DNA from: a bacterium
Lineage (GTDB): Bacteria > Zhuqueibacterota > Zhuqueibacteria > Oceanimicrobiales > Oceanimicrobiaceae
Direction of reading: 5' to 3'
Assembly: GCA_046757025.1 (NCBI GenBank)
Contig: JBHHXN010000111.1
Span: 1 to 17,683, forward strand
DNA length: 17,683 nucleotides
Shown here: positions 7,665 to 17,494 of the stretch, in pieces
How the letters are laid out: every line of letters starts with the position of its first letter
Position numbering within the stretch: the stretch's first letter is position 1
The notes under the pieces: model-generated
The model's database searches: none
Told to the model about the DNA's origin: nothing
Seen by the model: only the letters and a program-made list of their open reading frames with translations
Translations under genes and position numbers: made by a program

Positions 7665-7840
7665 AACTCCGTCCGTAGTGACCTGTTCCAAGCGTCCCGG
7701 TGTTCAGCAAGAAATTGTGGAATACGGTCAGGTGGTTTAAGCGGGAAGCCATTGGTGAGTTAGGCACGTGATTCCCGATGAGCTTGTCCTTGCATGCCGT
7801 AAACAGGAAGCATTTGAGAATGACGCTTACGGATGGACAC
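7665..7840. mobile_element. MITE-like element, family 2, inverted and degenerate copy of 12705-12825
   Basis: Right end TACGGATGGACAC (7828-7840) is identical to 12813-12825. 7736-7778 matches the reverse complement of the 12.7-kb element's interior at 37/43. Left end TCCGTCCGTA (7668-7677) is degenerate. Confidence 0.75.
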
Positions 7841-8016
7841 GAATGAGGTAAAGCTTCTCGAGCAATACTTAAAAAGAAAGTTTGAAGACAAGTTGAGATA
7901 GTTGGATGAGAAGTAATAGTTGGTGGAACATCTAAAAAGGTTCTCCCCGCAATTCCCCTCAGATGCCTAAAAACACCGCCAGTTTCACGACAAATTATAG
8001 CGAATCTACTATTGCC

Positions 8017-9762
8017 CTATTTTTCTTCCACCAGATAAATTGTGACGCCCCAGTGTGCCGGATCGTAGGGCGGAGCCACATTCCAGTCGTTGAAAGAATG
8101 GGAATCATCGGTTTCGTAATAAACGATGTACTCACCTTTTTTGAGAAGGATGGTGTCGTCGAACAGGCGATTTTTGGAAGCGCCGCCGGCGTGGTCGGTT
8201 TGGTTGTAGGTCATCTCCCAAACCACTCGCCGGGAATCGGCGTCTTCGATCCAGGCATAGTCGTACATTTTTCCGCCTTTGCCCTCGCCGATGGCATAAA
8301 TACGGATTTCACTATCTTTTCGCAAAGTAAATCTTTTGCGTTCTCGTTCATAATCGCTGACCCGAACGATCTGTGCAAGGACGGATTTGTCTTCGCTGGC
8401 CTCATACTTAGCCACATCTTTTTTGTTGAAATGTTTTTCCGCGCAGGAAATGGTGATGCCCCACTTTTCCTGGTCGATGGGCGGCGCCGTGTTCCAATTC
8501 CAATAAGAGTGCGAGCCATCGGTGACGTAATTGACAATATAATTGCCTTTATCAAACTCCATCACTTCATCAAACAAGCGATTTTTTTCGCCCCCACCTG
8601 CATGCTCAGAATTATAAAAATCCATCTCCCAGATTTTCTTGTGGGTTTTTGCGTCCACAATCCAGCCGTAATCAAACATTTCATTTCTGCGGCCTTCGCC
8701 CAGCGCATAAATCCTGAGATGCATGGGTTTTTTGAGTGTGAAGCCGCCGTTGAGGAACTCATTATCCCGCACCCGCGTGAACTGCAAAATGATATTTTCT
8801 TCTGGCATGTCTTCGTAATCGAACAGCTCAACATACTTTTTCATGACGGGATCTTCCACTTTCAGGGTCATGCCCCAAAACATGGGATCGTAGGGCGGTG
8901 CGGCATTCCAGCGTCTGTAGGAATGAGAATCATCTGTGATAAACGTCGCAACATAGCGGCCCGCCGGCAGCGACACGACTTCATCAACCATGCGGTTTTT
9001 GCGCGCACCGCCAGCCGATTCGGTGTTGCGATAGGTCATCTTCCAGACTTTCTCGCGGGTTTGAGTGTTGATGATCCACCCATAATCATAGGTGCCGTCT
9101 TTTCGTATTTCTCCAAGCGCGTAAACTCGCAAATCCAGCGGTCTTTTCAGTTCAAAGCCGTATTCCAAATGTGCCTCATCTCTCAAAGCAGTCATGGAAA
9201 CAACGGTGTTTTTATTGAAGCTCTTGTGCAGTTCCGCGACTTCTTCTTCGTCGTACGACCTGCCATCTCCTCGAACCACGATTTTAAACTTACGCCATTC
9301 TTCTTTAAACGCGCCATATTCATCCACATAATCATCGCTGTCGAAAATTTCGTGCAAAATTCGACCGATGAAGTCTCCGAATCCATCCACTTGCCAGCTG
9401 GATGAGAAAGGATAAGAAGAGTAGTAAACTTCGTATTCACCTTCCGCCAGCTCTATAACATCTCGGTACTCCTGAGTTCTTCTATCTCGCTCTATGATTT
9501 CAGCGTCCTCCATTTCCCAGATTACCTGACGGGTCTGCGTGTCGAGTATCCAGGCGCGGGTGTAAACTAAACCGCCTCTTTTCCGCCCACGAAATCCTAC
9601 TGCTTCGATCTCGACCTCTTGCTCGTAGTTGAGTTTAAACCCCTGAAAATTGATCTCTTCCGGCGAAATGTTCTGGATGCTTACCAATATGTCGGTCTGC
9701 GCATTACCAAACGGTACCGCCGCGATGAGACTGAACACCATAATCATTGTGAATTTATTCAT
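8017..9762 (-). CDS. Uncharacterised exported protein with four tandem ~137-aa beta-rich repeats (581 aa)
   Basis: ATG 9762 with GGAG 9 nt upstream. Signal peptide MNKFTMIMVFSLIAAVPFGNA|Q. Repeats 2-4 share RxYAxGE...DYxWI...WxM...AGGxxKNR...TDxSHS...WNxAPPxD...WGxT; repeat 1 is divergent. Confidence 0.9.
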   Translation of the reverse strand: MNKFTMIMVFSLIAAVPFGNAQTDILVSIQNISPEEINFQGFKLNYEQEVEIEAVGFRGRKRGGLVYTRAWILDTQTRQVIWEMEDAEIIERDRRTQEYRDVIELAEGEYEVYYSSYPFSSSWQVDGFGDFIGRILHEIFDSDDYVDEYGAFKEEWRKFKIVVRGDGRSYDEEEVAELHKSFNKNTVVSMTALRDEAHLEYGFELKRPLDLRVYALGEIRKDGTYDYGWIINTQTREKVWKMTYRNTESAGGARKNRMVDEVVSLPAGRYVATFITDDSHSYRRWNAAPPYDPMFWGMTLKVEDPVMKKYVELFDYEDMPEENIILQFTRVRDNEFLNGGFTLKKPMHLRIYALGEGRRNEMFDYGWIVDAKTHKKIWEMDFYNSEHAGGGEKNRLFDEVMEFDKGNYIVNYVTDGSHSYWNWNTAPPIDQEKWGITISCAEKHFNKKDVAKYEASEDKSVLAQIVRVSDYERERKRFTLRKDSEIRIYAIGEGKGGKMYDYAWIEDADSRRVVWEMTYNQTDHAGGASKNRLFDDTILLKKGEYIVYYETDDSHSFNDWNVAPPYDPAHWGVTIYLVEEK

Positions 9763-10017
9763 AACGGGATTCTCCAAACGGTCCGATTTGATTTTGGAAA
9801 TTGAGACGAATAGAATTGCTGTAATTCCAAGTCCATTTTTATACGCTTTGTGCATAAATTTGTTACCATTTTTTTTCTGATAAAACCGCAGCCAAACGGT
9901 CTGAAATCAGTTCATTTTATTAGTCAAGCCAACTTTTGTAATTTGTAAAAAAGTATAATGAGCTTGCATTTTTTACAAATGAAGTAGGGTGTCAATGCAT
10001 TGGGAGCTCACCCTTTG

Positions 10018-10524: not shown

Positions 10525-10887
10525 TTAATTCTGTTTTTCTTCTTTGGACTTTGCGATCATGCGTTTGGCCAGAAAATAATAAGCGATCAGCGCCACGCCC
10601 GCCATGATGAACATCCCACTGATCGTCGCTTCTTCATGAAAAGAATAGGGCACAAACTGGCCGATCAAAATCGCAGCGCCCACGGCGATTAAAACCATGC
10701 CCCATTTCAATGAGGCGGGCGCCTGAGATTCCAGCCGATTGCTGTACAAATATTTGACGTTCTCATCAATCAAACCCTTGTCGATCAATTTTCGTCTAAC
10801 GGCGTTATCCGATAAAATTTTGATTATCGCCACAAAAGAAAAAAAGATGGCGGGCACGATGATGATAGGTACCATTTCTCCTGACAT
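10525..10887 (-). CDS. DUF6249-like small membrane protein (about 3 TM helices)
   Basis: Hydrophobic N-terminal helix, RRKLIDKG, SLKWGMVLIAVG and a C-terminal helix AGVALIAYYF. Shine-Dalgarno AAGGAG. Divergent from an ECF sigma gene. The family call is from recognition, not a search. Confidence 0.85.
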   Translation of the reverse strand: MSGEMVPIIIVPAIFFSFVAIIKILSDNAVRRKLIDKGLIDENVKYLYSNRLESQAPASLKWGMVLIAVGAAILIGQFVPYSFHEEATISGMFIMAGVALIAYYFLAKRMIAKSKEEKQN

Positions 10888-12698: not shown

Positions 12699-12704
12699 TA
12701 ATTA

Positions 12705-12825
12705 GTGTCCATCCGTAGTCGTCATTCCCGAATGCCGTTGTCGGGAATCTCATGCCTAACGGACCAATGGATTCCCACTTAAAGATTGCGGAAATGACAA
12801 AAAAAGGCTCTTTACGGATGGACAC
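12705..12825. mobile_element. MITE-like element, family 2, with perfect ends and internal REP-like palindrome
   Basis: GTGTCCATCCGTA/TACGGATGGACAC is a perfect inverted repeat that extends to 19 bp with the flanking TAATTA (12699-12717 and 12813-12831). The interior reads GTCATTCCCG..CGGGAATC...GATTCCC..CGGAAATGAC. A second copy lies at about 7665-7840. Confidence 0.85.
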
Positions 12826-12945
12826 TAATTAACCTATCAGCTAAAATTCCATGTGCAAGTGTGCAGCCCCTGGCAGGAGACCCTGTTTCCAGGGTCATGT
12901 TGAGCTTGAAGAAACGCTGGGCGCGGAAGGAATCCTTTTCTTTTC

Positions 12946-12979
12946 TTGCGCTGAAGTAACAAAATTAGTATATTGTTAC
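12946..12979 (+). promoter_or_regulatory. Sigma70-type promoter overlapped by a palindromic operator-like site
   Basis: TTGCGC (12946-12951), 17-nt spacer, TATATT (12969-12974). The inverted repeat GTAACAA-N10-TTGTTAC (12956-12979) covers the spacer and the -10 box. Confidence 0.55.
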
Positions 12980-13108: not shown

Positions 13109-16100
13109 ATGGCTATCACCATCGGTATAGACATAGGCGCCATCAGTACAAAAATCGGGATAGTGGGTCATCCCGATCACAGCGATTTTTTTGAATCCCT
13201 GAAAGGAAAAAATCTGTTCGTGCCAATAACACACCGTGCGATACGGCCCTTTTTGATTACTCGTTATACGCGCAGCCGAGGTAAACCAGCGGAGACGACC
13301 CTGCAACTGCTACAGCAGATGAATGCCCTTTTAACAAATCCGGATATTCGCGGAATCAGAATCTGCGGCTCAGGGGATGCCCTGTTGAGCAAATATTTAA
13401 ACACCAATATAGCGAATGAATTTACGGCAATTGCCAAAGGGATCGAGTTCTTATATCCTGAAGTACGTACTGTTTTCGAAATTGGTGGAGCCAATTCCCG
13501 CTATCTAAGGCTGGAACTGGATGCAAACACCGGAATAGTCGGACTAATAGATTATGGCAAGAGTGGGGATTGTGCTGCGGGGACCGGCGCTTTCCTCGAC
13601 CAACAGGCTTCACGCATGAAATATCATATTGAAGACATTGGGGAGCTTGTAGCAGGATGTTCCACGGCGGCCAAAATCGCCGGACGCTGTTCGGTTTTTG
13701 CAAAATCAGACATGATTCATGCTCAGCAGAAGGGGTATAAACCCGAAGAGATATTAAAAGGATTATGTGAGGCGGTAGCCCGAAATTTCAAAAGCAACAT
13801 CGTGTGCGGAAAAGCGGTGCAGCCACCGGTCGCTTTCCTGGGCGGTGTGGCTGCCAATAAGGGTGTTGAAATCGCACTCCGTTCACTTTATCATCTCAAA
13901 GATGAGGAGTTGTTTGTACCGCCTTTATTTCACTGGGTTGCGGCTTTGGGCGCCGCAATGATTGAATATGAGGTCTCGCGGGAAAATGATGAACAGAAAT
14001 TGTCATTCTTCCTCAAAGATCGCGCACCCGTTAAGACCGACGCAAAACAATTTCCCGTCAGTCAATTTTTGAGCCTGGACAAGGTGGTGCTTTTACGCGA
14101 TCGGGTAATGAATACCCCGAATCGAAAATCAGAAGCCAAGATGGAAGCCTATTTGGGCATCGATATCGGTTCGGTAAGCACAAATCTGGCTGTTATTGAT
14201 ACGGATGGTAATATACTTAAAGAGATATACACAAAAACTGAGAGTCGCCCTATTGAGGTCGTAAATCTCGGACTTCAGGAAATACAGGCCGAAATTGGAG
14301 ACGACATCGAGATACGTGGCGTCGGTACCACGGGCTCCGGAAGAGAGCTCATCGGCAATCTCATCGGCGCTGACACAATCAATGATGAAATTACCGCCCA
14401 CAAAACCGGCGCGGATTTTGTGGGTAAAAAGATGCTGAACAAAACGGTGGATACGATTTTCGAAATTGGTGGCCAGGATTCCAAGTTTATCAGCCTGGAA
14501 AACGGCATTGTTGTTGACTTTGCCATGAATGAGGCCTGTGCTGCGGGAACGGGTTCTTTTTTGGAGGAGCGGGCGGAAGAATTGGAGATAAGCATTAAGG
14601 ATCAGTTTGCTCAGCTCTCTCTGCAATCTCGCGGCCCTATCCGCCTGGGAGAACGTTGCACCGTTTTTATGGAGAGGGATGTTACCGCATATCAGCAATC
14701 GGGAGCGTTGAAAGAGGACTTGGTCGCGGGCCTGGCTTATTCCGTGGTTTACAATTATCTGAACCGGGTGGTTCGCGGGCGAAAAATCGGAGAGGTTATT
14801 TTCTTTCAAGGTGGCACGGCATACAACAATGCCGTGGCTGCGGCTTTTTCCCGGGTTTTAGGAAAAGAAATTATCGTGCCGCCATATAATGGCGTAATCG
14901 GCGCCATCGGAGCAGCCTTACTGGCAAAGGACAAAATGCAAAGCAGTAACCAGAATACCTCTTTTCGAGGATACTCTCTGGAAAATGTTGATTATACACT
15001 CCGCGAATTTACCTGTAAAGCATGTTCAAATTACTGCAACATGCAAGCCTTCACTGTTGAGGAGGAGACAACCTACTGGGGCGATCAGTGCTCGGATAAG
15101 TTCAGGAAACGAGCCAAGAATGGGAAACAGGCGAATATAGAAGACCTGTTTCAGAGCCGGAGCGATATTCTTTTTGAAGGATACGACCCGAAGAGAAATG
15201 AAGAAGGTGTGACTATCGGTATCCCATTGTGTATGTACACTTATGATTGGTTTCCCTTTTGGAAAAGCTACCTCTATGAATTGGGGTTCAACATTGTTGT
15301 GTCAGACCCCACAAACAAAATGACCAAAAACAAGGGGCATGAAGCCACTGTGGCGGAACCGTGTTTTCCGATTACGGTTTCTCACGGCCACGTTCTCAGT
15401 CTTTTTCAGCAGGATGTCGATTTCGTGCTGGTTCCCAATATGATTAATCTAAAACCGGTTGCGGCCGAGGTTAAATCCTATTTCTGCCCCTGGGGGCAGA
15501 CTCTGCCTTTTACTATCAGTCATTCGCCACTGGTGGAAAAATATAATGATCGCATCCTGAAACCGACTCTGGAGTTTGGATACGGCGAAAAAGTCGTGCA
15601 AAATTCACTCTCCGAGATGGTTCGACAATTCGGAATTTTTCAGAACCGGTCAAATAGAGCTTTTCAAAAAGCATATAACCGGCAGATAGAATTCCAACAA
15701 AAGCTCTATACGCATGGAGAGAGCATTTTAAAAAAAATTCAATCGTTGGGGGAGAAAGCCATTGTGCTGGTGGGCCGGCCTTATAATATTTATGATAGTG
15801 GGGTAAATATCGACATTCCAAGGAAGATCCGGGATTACTATGGGGTCAATCTGATACCTTTGGATTTCCTGAACGTGGAACATATCGATATTCGCGCCAT
15901 AAATGACAATATGTTCTGGAGCTACGGCCGGAAAATAATTGCCACCGCACGTTTTGTTCGAGACTATCCAAATCTGGATCTCATTTATTTGACCAATTTC
16001 AAATGCGGTCCGGATTCATATATTAAGCACTATATTTCAGATGCGTTGGCAAGGCCATTTCTCGTTCTGCAGTTCGATGAGCACAGCAACGACGCCGGCT

Positions 16101-16150
16101 ATCTTACCCGATGTGAGGCCTATTTAACCAGCAAACGTTTTATCAGCTAA
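13109..16150 (+). CDS. PlsA-like Fe-S protein: two BadF/BadG/BcrA/BcrD (ASKHA) activase domains plus a DUF2229 reductase/dehydratase-like domain
   Basis: Two copies of GIDIGxxST, EIGG, CAAGTG, RCxVF, GGxAxN and GAA. Cys cluster FTCKACSNYC...GDQC. C-terminal AEPCFP, LVGRPYN, FKCGPD and DEHS..AG..TRCEA. Shine-Dalgarno GGGAGGAG. Confidence 0.9.
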   Translation: MAITIGIDIGAISTKIGIVGHPDHSDFFESLKGKNLFVPITHRAIRPFLITRYTRSRGKPAETTLQLLQQMNALLTNPDIRGIRICGSGDALLSKYLNTNIANEFTAIAKGIEFLYPEVRTVFEIGGANSRYLRLELDANTGIVGLIDYGKSGDCAAGTGAFLDQQASRMKYHIEDIGELVAGCSTAAKIAGRCSVFAKSDMIHAQQKGYKPEEILKGLCEAVARNFKSNIVCGKAVQPPVAFLGGVAANKGVEIALRSLYHLKDEELFVPPLFHWVAALGAAMIEYEVSRENDEQKLSFFLKDRAPVKTDAKQFPVSQFLSLDKVVLLRDRVMNTPNRKSEAKMEAYLGIDIGSVSTNLAVIDTDGNILKEIYTKTESRPIEVVNLGLQEIQAEIGDDIEIRGVGTTGSGRELIGNLIGADTINDEITAHKTGADFVGKKMLNKTVDTIFEIGGQDSKFISLENGIVVDFAMNEACAAGTGSFLEERAEELEISIKDQFAQLSLQSRGPIRLGERCTVFMERDVTAYQQSGALKEDLVAGLAYSVVYNYLNRVVRGRKIGEVIFFQGGTAYNNAVAAAFSRVLGKEIIVPPYNGVIGAIGAALLAKDKMQSSNQNTSFRGYSLENVDYTLREFTCKACSNYCNMQAFTVEEETTYWGDQCSDKFRKRAKNGKQANIEDLFQSRSDILFEGYDPKRNEEGVTIGIPLCMYTYDWFPFWKSYLYELGFNIVVSDPTNKMTKNKGHEATVAEPCFPITVSHGHVLSLFQQDVDFVLVPNMINLKPVAAEVKSYFCPWGQTLPFTISHSPLVEKYNDRILKPTLEFGYGEKVVQNSLSEMVRQFGIFQNRSNRAFQKAYNRQIEFQQKLYTHGESILKKIQSLGEKAIVLVGRPYNIYDSGVNIDIPRKIRDYYGVNLIPLDFLNVEHIDIRAINDNMFWSYGRKIIATARFVRDYPNLDLIYLTNFKCGPDSYIKHYISDALARPFLVLQFDEHSNDAGYLTRCEAYLTSKRFIS

Positions 16151-16168
16151 TCAAAAAGGGAGTGGACC

Positions 16169-17494
16169 ATGATCCAGCTTAAAAATAAAGATGGGCATCC
16201 TGGAAACAGTATAACTGAGAAGGAATATTACGATCCCTTGAAAGGGCGCAAAGTTTATGTGCCTCAAATGAGCGTTGAAGGTACCGCCTGTGTTGTAGCA
16301 GCGTTACGAGCAATTGGGCTTGAAGCGGAAGTTTACCCTGCACCCGATGAAGAAACTTTGAGACTGGGAGGACAGTTGACCTCGGGAGATGAATGCTATC
16401 CGCAGATAATAACTCTGGGAAATTTTTTGAAAATAGTAAAGGACAAGGATTTCGACCCAGATCGAACAGCCTTTTTTATGGCTACCTCTGGCGGCCCCTG
16501 TCGATTTGGCCAGTACGTTCCTTTTATGAAGAAGGTGTTTCGGGATATGGGTTACTCCCAGGTTCCCATTTTTTCTCCCATGGCTGATACCGGTTATGGA
16601 GTGTACTACAGTGGCGCTGCTGATTTCCCAAGGATGGCCATGCGTGCTTTGATGTGTGGCGACATTCTTCGAAAACTCTTGCTCAAAACCCGACCTTATG
16701 AAATAAATTCCGGGGAAACTGACAGGGTGCATCAGGAATGTTTACAGTTGATATGCAAGATCATAGAAATCCCTGAAAAATCCAGTAAAGAGAAGATGCA
16801 AGATTTGCTTTGTGGCCTGGAGGAAATCCGGGATCGCTTCCGGAAAATAAAAATAAAGAGTAACCGGGATAAACTGTTTATCGGCGTGGTTGGCGAGATA
16901 TATTGTCGGCTCGAAGAGTTTTCAAATAACTTTTTAATTCGCACAGTTGAAAGACTTGGCGGGGAAATCTGGATAGCAAATATATCGGAGTGGCTGACTT
17001 ATGTAAATTTCATGCACACCCACCGCTTGACCATCCTGAACAAAACGTTTTCAAAAGATATGCTCAAAATGAGAATCAAAACGGCTATCCTGCATAGTGA
17101 CGAGAAAAAGCTGTATAAACTATTTAAAGATGATTTTAGAGGTTATGAAGAGGCGGACCACGTGGGCGAGATTCTGGCAAGAGGCGCGCCATACCTACCT
17201 TATCGGGGTGCCTTAGGAGAAATGGCGTTGAGCGTTGGGACGAGTCTATATTTCTATGAAAAGGGTATTGACGGGATTATCGATATCAGTCCTTTCACCT
17301 GCATGAATGGAATCATCACCGAGGCCGTCTATCCCAAAATAAGCAAAGACCATAACAATTTGCCCATGCGTGTTTTCTACTTTGACGGCACTGAAACGAA
17401 TATGGAGCGGGACGTGAGTATCTTTCTTGATTTGGCACGCACATACCGCCGGCGAAAGAAGAAAACCCGGGTGTATCCTCGAGTTTTCTACTAG
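16169..17494 (+). CDS. PlsR-like 2-hydroxyacyl-CoA dehydratase-type Fe-S partner subunit
   Basis: Motifs DECYP, GGPCRFGQY, GVVGEIY, GEMA and PFTCM. Starts 18 nt after the activase gene; Shine-Dalgarno AGGGAG. Confidence 0.85.
   Translation: MIQLKNKDGHPGNSITEKEYYDPLKGRKVYVPQMSVEGTACVVAALRAIGLEAEVYPAPDEETLRLGGQLTSGDECYPQIITLGNFLKIVKDKDFDPDRTAFFMATSGGPCRFGQYVPFMKKVFRDMGYSQVPIFSPMADTGYGVYYSGAADFPRMAMRALMCGDILRKLLLKTRPYEINSGETDRVHQECLQLICKIIEIPEKSSKEKMQDLLCGLEEIRDRFRKIKIKSNRDKLFIGVVGEIYCRLEEFSNNFLIRTVERLGGEIWIANISEWLTYVNFMHTHRLTILNKTFSKDMLKMRIKTAILHSDEKKLYKLFKDDFRGYEEADHVGEILARGAPYLPYRGALGEMALSVGTSLYFYEKGIDGIIDISPFTCMNGIITEAVYPKISKDHNNLPMRVFYFDGTETNMERDVSIFLDLARTYRRRKKKTRVYPRVFY

Follow-up and report, generated by a model that had tools for sequence, protein, structure and literature searches.

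The two adjacent genes at the end of the stretch of DNA analysed here (17,683 nucleotides; hereafter the window) encode a protein pair that likely forms ether lipids from ester-linked membrane phospholipids under anoxia, an assignment made by sequence comparison. It represents a large branch of the known PlsA/PlsR-Ger family in a typical way and is not a new system; enzymes of this type have been known since 2021-2022. By its sequence relationships, it belongs to a very large clade of split forms that differs from the clade containing PlsA and has an extra conserved cysteine. To our knowledge, no member of this split clade has been tested.

The gene pair and its conserved cysteines

The original prediction described a 1013-aa activase-activase-cysteine linker-DUF2229 protein followed by a 441-aa subunit with three cysteine motifs, and the reading frames, domains, and motifs were all confirmed (Table 1). 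Both frames were open, with a gap of 18 nt. In P0001, Pfam matched BcrAD_BadFG twice (E 7e-72) and DUF2229 once, at residues 702-920 (E 1e-53), which gives the BBD core: a pair of PF01869 activase domains with PF09989 after them. The linker cysteines had the spacing C636-x2-C639-x3-C643...C661. P0002 contained the motifs ECYP (C76), GPCRFG (C111), and PFTCM (C378). The contig ended 189 nt past the P0002 stop codon, and therefore an additional downstream gene is possible.

Table 1. Features of the gene pair and its upstream region (window coordinates)
Feature	Position	Strand	Support
Possible promoter, 8/12 consensus matches by eye, with an overlapping 24-nt palindrome (putative operator)	12946..12979	+	
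RBS-like purine stretch 5' of the P0001 gene	13097..13105	+	sequence reading
P0001, PlsA-type gene, 1013 aa: activase 1, activase 2, Cys4 linker, reductase domain 1	13109..16150	+	
P0001 activase (ASKHA ATPase) domain 1, with C155 and C194	13109..13978	+	PF01869
P0001 activase domain 2, with C477 and C517	14141..14944	+	PF01869 at residues 349-606
P0001 linker CxxCxxxC...C (C636, C639, C643, C661), putative relay site for Fe-S or a metal	15014..15091	+	
P0001 reductase domain 1 (DUF2229 and C-terminal part), with C752, C793, and C966	15212..16147	+	PF09989 at 15212-15868
RBS-like purine stretch in the intergenic gap	16157..16162	+	sequence reading
P0002, PlsR-type gene, 441 aa: reductase domain 2, with C76, C111, C378, and clade-specific C246 (GEIYCR)	16169..17494	+	

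The C. perfringens plasmalogen synthase PlsA/PlsR is CPE1195/CPE1194 (Jackson et al. 2021, as reported in PMC12838417, PMC9702350, and PMC8788747). The Clostridium plsA-plsR orthologue used for comparison (L025) was retrieved with a published plsA primer, and the two plsA primers span 4199 bp in it, the stated length of the C. perfringens plsA-plsR fragment. Both systems have two genes (975 + 420 aa in Clostridium, 1013 + 441 aa in the window) with the same split point and the same activase-activase-linker-reductase order. P0001 and P0002 aligned with the orthologue end to end, at only 28% identity (1015 columns, E 2e-117) and 23% identity (E 5e-28), respectively, and all 14 conserved cysteines of the family, predicted to bind Fe-S (4 activase, 4 linker, 3 + 3 reductase) were present. 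Seven of the P0001 positions (C155, C194, C477, C517, C752, C793, and C966) were kept in 30/30 PlsA-type rows, the four linker cysteines in 29/30, and three positions in 31/32 PlsR-type rows. Thus the second reductase domain, homologous to PlsR, is present as the adjacent gene; in fused homologues the chain runs on into a P0002-like tail of 424-521 aa at the point where P0001 and P0002 are split. The tested fused PlsA proteins of E. faecalis, L. cremoris, and B. longum (PMC12838417) have the same domain order but in one chain from one gene, and a fused Listeria homologue was 29% identical to P0001 and 23% to P0002. The two tested Ger enzymes (T. maritima Tmari_0479 and D. alkenivorans SHJ90043) have, as described, the same BBD core as the window, but each is a single gene. 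That core is reported to be conserved in alkyl-ether producers (PMC13159169, PMC11150832), with an "architecture 2" BBD listed for Edaphobacter aggregans (PMC13159169), and no diagnostic Ger motif is known (PMC13274423).

P0002 had no match in Pfam or NCBIfam, HGD-D included, and none below E 0.39 among the sequences of solved structures, where a search with an alignment (A2) was also empty; a single-protein scan of named genomes gave 48 pattern matches, of which none was confirmed, and the ESM Atlas returned solely unnamed or DUF2229 clusters. There were 3751 P0002 relatives among 7997 scored candidates, and chance resemblance was ruled out. The AlphaFold model of P0002 (pLDDT 89) matched the dehydratase/reductase subunit fold, with HadC (3o3m_B) at Z 13.6 (rmsd 4.2, 273 aligned), BzdN (8s02_B) at Z 13.5, MbdN at Z 12.4, and DCCP at Z 11.9, compared to Z 6.2 for the next unrelated structure; the PDB hits of activase domain 2 of P0001 were 4eht, 1hux, 9gai, and 7yyl. 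HadBC/HadI, BzdNO/MbdNOPQ, and DCCP/DCCP-R therefore share the activase ATPase fold and the three-cysteine Fe-S subunit fold with the window. In contrast, their reductase subunits are 10-13% identical to that of the window, their activases are unfused, they have neither a Cys4 linker nor DUF2229, and their substrates are soluble CoA-thioesters or small molecules. P0002 had no transmembrane segment (maximum KD19 1.22). Its basic charge (pI 8.7, against 5.1-5.9 in six soluble controls) was considered as a sign of membrane binding and rejected, as the median across 120 P0002-type proteins was 5.95.

Phylogenetic placement, distribution, and host genome

In a quick activase tree of 68 rows, seven soluble dehydratase (HAD) and benzoyl-CoA reductase (BCR) activases fell on one side of a branch with SH-aLRT 99 and the window activases fell with PlsA, so that the grouping with soluble systems named in the original prediction as counting against it was not observed. 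The window pair lay outside the Clostridium/Listeria PlsA clade, in which the Listeria protein was placed, and formed separate clades in both reductase trees. A single clade of all split forms was rejected (AU p 7e-7). As the split forms are not one clade and the pair is outside the PlsA clade, the split layout, although common to both systems, which are homologous, is not diagnostic, and we rejected it as evidence for orthology with the C. perfringens genes. The motifs also differ: GEIxCR, GPCRFGQY, and PFTCMNG in the window clade correspond to GEIYLK, GGCRASNY, and PFGCLPN in PlsR, and the fourth cysteine, in GE[IVL][YF]CR, occurred in 120/120 P0002-type proteins and is absent from PlsR. The reductase and activase trees were built without Ger sequences and so do not have tested enzymes on both sides of the window clade.

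Of 41 relatives, 17 had a PlsA-type gene, and the same 17 had a PlsR-type gene; the PlsR-type gene came directly after the PlsA-type gene in 69/80 metagenomic loci and 15/20 same-phylum loci. Of 133 genomes searched from the phylum, 81 carried the family, usually with a single match and in varying gene neighbourhoods, the pattern that a housekeeping function would give; Ger homologues are known already from numerous FCB and candidate phyla (PMC13159169). A homologue of the tetraether synthase Tes adjoined the PlsR-type gene in 10/80 metagenomic loci of the window clade, whereas none of the 20 same-phylum loci had Tes in the vicinity. All five of the Tes neighbours tested passed NF045702, and the seven Tes-linked members that were placed fell inside the window clade (98/98) on two sub-branches. 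Because these loci are related to each other, the ten amount to about two independent cases. The adjacency gives indirect support for a lipid role. No lipid gene was found flanking the window operon. A Paraclostridium BBD protein that is without the linker and tail cysteines adjoins ABC-transporter genes, which suggests that the BBD module can be reused elsewhere.

The host, probably KSB1 (Zhuqueibacterota), carries a second, fused family member on contig C39, and thus its capacity for ether lipids would not rest on the window pair alone. Its genome also encodes PlsY and six POR_N matches, and no Tes above the cut-off. As two full oxidase subunits are present, the host is likely facultative, which supports the facultative option of the anaerobic or facultative lifestyle originally proposed.

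Proposed reaction and alternative explanations

Every family member for which PMC12838417, PMC13159169, or PMC11150832 demonstrates an activity makes ether lipids. By analogy with HgdC/HadI dimers, the two ATPase domains of P0001 would hold one bridging [4Fe-4S] cluster, which, as in the HgdC/HadI, BCR, and PlsAR families, would be reduced by ferredoxin or flavodoxin. Driven by ATP hydrolysis, electrons of low potential would then pass via the Cys4 linker to the clusters held by three cysteines each in reductase domains 1 and 2, with P0002 pairing with reductase domain 1 as HadB and HadC do, a pairing suggested by the fused homologues and the fold. The sn-1 ester carbonyl would be reduced in two single-electron steps and, after protonation and loss of water, yield a vinyl ether, which may be reduced further to an alkyl ether. 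From the position of the clade outside that of PlsA and the Tes homologues beside some of its members, we infer, tentatively and at a little under an even chance, that the product is an alkyl ether, in preference to plasmalogen, which we consider possible but doubtful.

The strongest competing explanation, which we judge quite unlikely, is that the same radical chemistry acts on a different substrate (a lipid without glycerol, or some other acyl ester), or that the pair carries out just part of the reaction and depends on the C39 paralogue or host factors. A separate clade with its own fourth cysteine, a second family member in the same genome, and the degenerate Paraclostridium protein in its transporter context would all fit. 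So would the inactivity of Ger2 of D. alkenivorans (PMC11150832) and of the T. geofontis and Kuenenia homologues (PMC13159169 supplement) in E. coli. None of the three yielded ethers, and Sporomusa ovata makes no ethers despite its BBD homologue (PMC13159169 supplement); these findings count against the ether-lipid assignment itself. Several points speak against the competing explanation: the authors name inclusion bodies as a possible cause of the negative expression results, all cluster ligands are retained in the window pair, Tes is linked to members of the clade, and many relatives carry the window clade as their sole match.

A fused-activase system of the soluble 2-hydroxyacyl-CoA dehydratase or benzoyl-CoA reductase type shares the folds and would fit the TIGR00241 activase domain scoring above cut-off, but it is largely refuted and very improbable: the BcrA/D and BzdQ models scored far under cut-off (149 vs 578 bits), the activase tree separates the soluble activases, and none of the 37 recurrent neighbours scanned was a CoA-transferase or acyl-CoA dehydrogenase. 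Moreover, P0002 has no HGD-D, whereas the host's own HGD-D pair (E 8e-65, 2e-58) sits in a separate benzoyl-CoA-type cluster on C87, alongside which there is an activase pair on C161. Least probable of all, with a chance that we consider slight, is that the genes were acquired laterally and are now decaying or silent, with no function at present. With the window query the family was missing from 19/20 genomes of the host's own family, same-class copies were not the nearest relatives, and GC3 was at the 11th-13th percentile of long ORFs; on the other hand, both frames are intact with every conserved cysteine, the terminal branches are short (0.15, 0.26), and RBS-like sites are present.

If the ether-lipid assignment holds, the potential producers of the non-isoprenoid ether lipids used as environmental biomarkers would include one more common phylum of uncultured sediment bacteria. 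A bolder reading, speculative and on balance unlikely, would give the GE[IVL][YF]CR split clade the main role in forming ether bonds among uncultured bacteria of sediment and soil (KSB1, Latescibacterota, Poribacteria, Acidobacteriota, and others), with the clade making saturated mono- and diethers, in some lineages feeding an adjacent Tes to give bacterial tetraethers, and in the host sharing the work (sn-1 vs sn-2, or vinyl vs alkyl) with the fused C39 paralogue. A genome with both a split and a fused paralogue lets the determinants of vinyl vs alkyl and sn-1 vs sn-2 be tested, and the split form, as two smaller genes, could be easier to express than the 150-160 kDa Ger proteins, which formed inclusion bodies.

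The upstream region

The putative promoter in Table 1 was absent from the promoter-scan calls, and the window's promoter and terminator counts were near shuffled-sequence levels. No FNR, Rex, or CRP consensus box was found upstream at ≤2 mismatches, and Rfam had no match within the window. The 24-nt palindrome was the sole exact copy of its pattern genome-wide. Elsewhere in the window, the ORF at 10525-10887 lies on the minus strand.

The gene pair and its products

The gene pair named in the original prediction, which encodes an A-type, PlsA-like protein (P0001) and an R-type, PlsR-like protein (P0002), proved to be real, its co-oriented reading frames being separated by 18 nt; the contig, all of which lies in the window, ends 189 nt beyond the P0002 stop codon. 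P0001 carries two BcrAD_BadFG domains and DUF2229 (PF09989, already present in the published literature). The generic activase model TIGR00241 was the sole NCBIfam model passed, and PDB matches to its activase domain were HadI, HgdC, MbdQ/P, and DCCP-R. The A gene is indeed annotated at source as 'CoA-substrate-specific enzyme activase', as had been anticipated; R-type proteins are labeled 'nucleotide-binding protein' or hypothetical. Family-model searches with P0002 gave no match. When its predicted structure (pLDDT 89.3) was searched with Foldseek, DCCP, HadB/HadC, BzdNO, and MbdNO were matched, and VIA-align gave Z values of 11.9-13.6 for these and 6.2 for the next row.

Some 130 nt before the operon lies a 24-nt palindrome, a possible operator, whose pattern has no other exact copy in the genome. 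A MITE-like element bounded by perfect inverted ends of 19 nt stands at two places in the window, and these ends match exactly 20 times across the genome. The window also encodes, close to genes for an ECF sigma factor and its anti-sigma-like partner, a 612-aa protein that gave no Pfam match and is built with internal repeats, each about 138 aa long.

Coordinates of the gene pair and of other features in the window, the host genome (G000), and related loci
Feature	Position	Context	State
P0001 ORF, 1013 aa	13109-16150	same strand as P0002	intact
P0002 ORF, 441 aa	16169-17494	same strand as P0001	intact
MITE-like element	12699-12831 and 7736-7847		
24-nt palindrome	12956-12979		
612-aa repeat protein	8017-9855	- strand	
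Fused family member P0122 (L021), 1466 aa	G000:C39:7339-11739		
Benzoyl-CoA-pathway-like cluster, reductase subunits	G000:C87:14096-21064	contig end	below Bcr/Bzd equivalog cut-offs
Activase pair going with that cluster	G000:C161:9984-11644	contig end	below Bcr/Bzd equivalog cut-offs
Paraclostridium plasmid BBD protein	L024:3782-7630		
B12-binding radical SAM protein	L050:88-1965	genome G007	

Relation to PlsA/PlsR and to fused homologues

The C. perfringens PlsA/PlsR system (Jackson et al. 2021) is described in PMC12838417, PMC9702350, and PMC8788747. A published C. perfringens plsA primer had matches in two Clostridium sp. genomes; at the Clostridium locus L025 the reverse primer fits with one mismatch, and the primer-to-primer span is 4199 bp, the length given for the functional plsA-plsR fragment. 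L025, from a strain not among the tested ones, was treated as a plsA-plsR orthologue. P0001 is 28% identical to its PlsA over 1015 columns, and P0002 is 23% identical to its PlsR (E 5e-28). Of the P0001 cysteines, seven are invariant across the family (30/30 rows) and the four in the linker are kept in 29/30, and three cysteines of P0002 are kept in 31 of 32 rows; the sole exception to linker and P0002 cysteine conservation is a Paraclostridium plasmid protein. This protein, which lacks the cysteines of both linker and tail, is encoded next to a cupin gene and genes for an NMT1-type ABC transporter and may have a different function. A fourth cysteine, in GE[IVL][YF]CR, is a feature of the window's clade: it was found in 120/120 P0002-type proteins (P0002 plus the 119 top matches to it), and neither PlsR nor the fused clades have it. 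In 12 intact fused homologues, a tail of 424-521 aa begins where the window pair is split.

Trees of reductase domain 2 (P0002; 32 rows) and reductase domain 1 (the DUF2229-containing part of P0001; 30 rows), built by the careful method with no Ger included, placed the pair in a split clade (support 100/99 and 92/97, respectively) separate from the Clostridium/Fusobacterium/Listeria/Collinsella clade. A constraint uniting 17 split forms against 12 fused forms was rejected (p-AU 7e-7), and therefore fission or fusion was recurrent; the deep branching order is unsure because of the long branches of Paraclostridium, Monoglobus, Brevibacillus, and Haliovirga. The split layout noted in the original prediction is shared with PlsA/PlsR, as are the full-length homology and the conserved cysteines, but it is not diagnostic: the pair lies outside the Clostridium clade and split forms are not monophyletic.

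Gene neighborhoods and probable function

A was followed directly by R at 69 of 80 metagenomic loci (7 lacked A upstream and 4 were too short), these being the best 80 of more than 596 and biased toward the query, and at 15/20 same-phylum loci; the other neighbors differ between loci. In family f6, A and R lie on separate contigs in 4/4 genomes, both retained (L032, L033, L034, L037; L061, L062, L064, L065), and the gene ahead of A encodes a conserved protein of 346 aa that has no significant match in Pfam and is not found in G000. A homologue of tetraether synthase (Tes) occurs near R at 10 of the best 80 metagenomic loci (L095, L103, L110, L111, L116, L127, L129, L132, L144, L160) and at 0/20 same-phylum loci; five of the ten homologues were scanned and all passed NF045702. 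A, R, and Tes stand in a row at L127 and L132, and L095, L144, and L160 have an additional radical SAM gene downstream. The seven of these loci placed in the tree (two short loci and one near-duplicate were left out) occupy two sub-branches within the window's clade, which ties membrane-lipid synthesis to that clade, not to the window locus itself. For S. usitatus, PlsAR and Tes homologues were jointly proposed as a brGDGT route.

We consider ether-lipid formation by the pair probable. With the cluster roles in HgdC/HadBC as background, ATP-driven electrons would leave the activase cluster and reach both reductase clusters by way of the linker. The sn-1 ester would then be reduced, followed by dehydration, in line with the PlsAR proposal. 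PMC11868695 and PMC13274423 describe PlsA and Ger as indistinguishable by sequence, and PMC11150832 and PMC13159169 report some homologues that gave no ethers upon expression. We regard another or a partial substrate as unlikely. That the pair is a soluble HAD/BCR system is decidedly improbable. Its structural matches include such enzymes, but the host has its own separate benzoyl-CoA-pathway-like cluster with an activase pair. In a tree of 68 activase rows, built by the quick method alone, seven soluble activases fell on one side of one branch (SH-aLRT 99) with both window domains apart; a grouping with soluble systems, named in the original prediction as counting against it, was thus not seen for these domains. 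A silent copy is the least probable reading, and both frames are intact.

The pair is an additional member of a known enzyme family, not a new system. Ger homologues are already reported from numerous candidate phyla and from Calditrichaeota, Zixibacteria, and Latescibacteria (PMC13159169); KSB1 (Zhuqueibacterota) is not named in the passages covered of its supplements or of PMC11868695, and a literature search on ether lipids in this phylum retrieved two titles, both on other topics. Clade members may already be included in Data S1/S2 of PMC13159169 (Ger trees) and the supplements of bioRxiv 2026.06.23.733905.

Host genome and distribution

Named relatives of a PorX-like protein encoded near the pair are mostly from KSB1/Zhuqueibacterota, and the host is therefore probably a KSB1 member. 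The host genome has two full-length COX1 matches, six POR_N matches, and PlsY, and a scan for Tes gave nothing over the cut-off. The COX1 matches support a facultative lifestyle, one of the two options suggested earlier, and PMC11683472 is consistent with this. A second, fused family member (P0122) is 31% identical to P0001 and belongs to a different clade. The family is present in 1/20 genomes of the host's own family and 81/133 of the phylum, and 81/133 aside, a split by COX1 (match with E below 1e-100) gave 4/26 genomes where it is present and 13/15 where it is not, kin not being independent. The closest proteins (80% and 69%) are other than the same-class copies, one of them being labeled Desulfobacterales. 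The GC3 of the pair is lowish, and lateral acquisition, in either direction, is possible. In genome G007, a B12-binding radical SAM protein has a weak C-terminal DUF2229 match.
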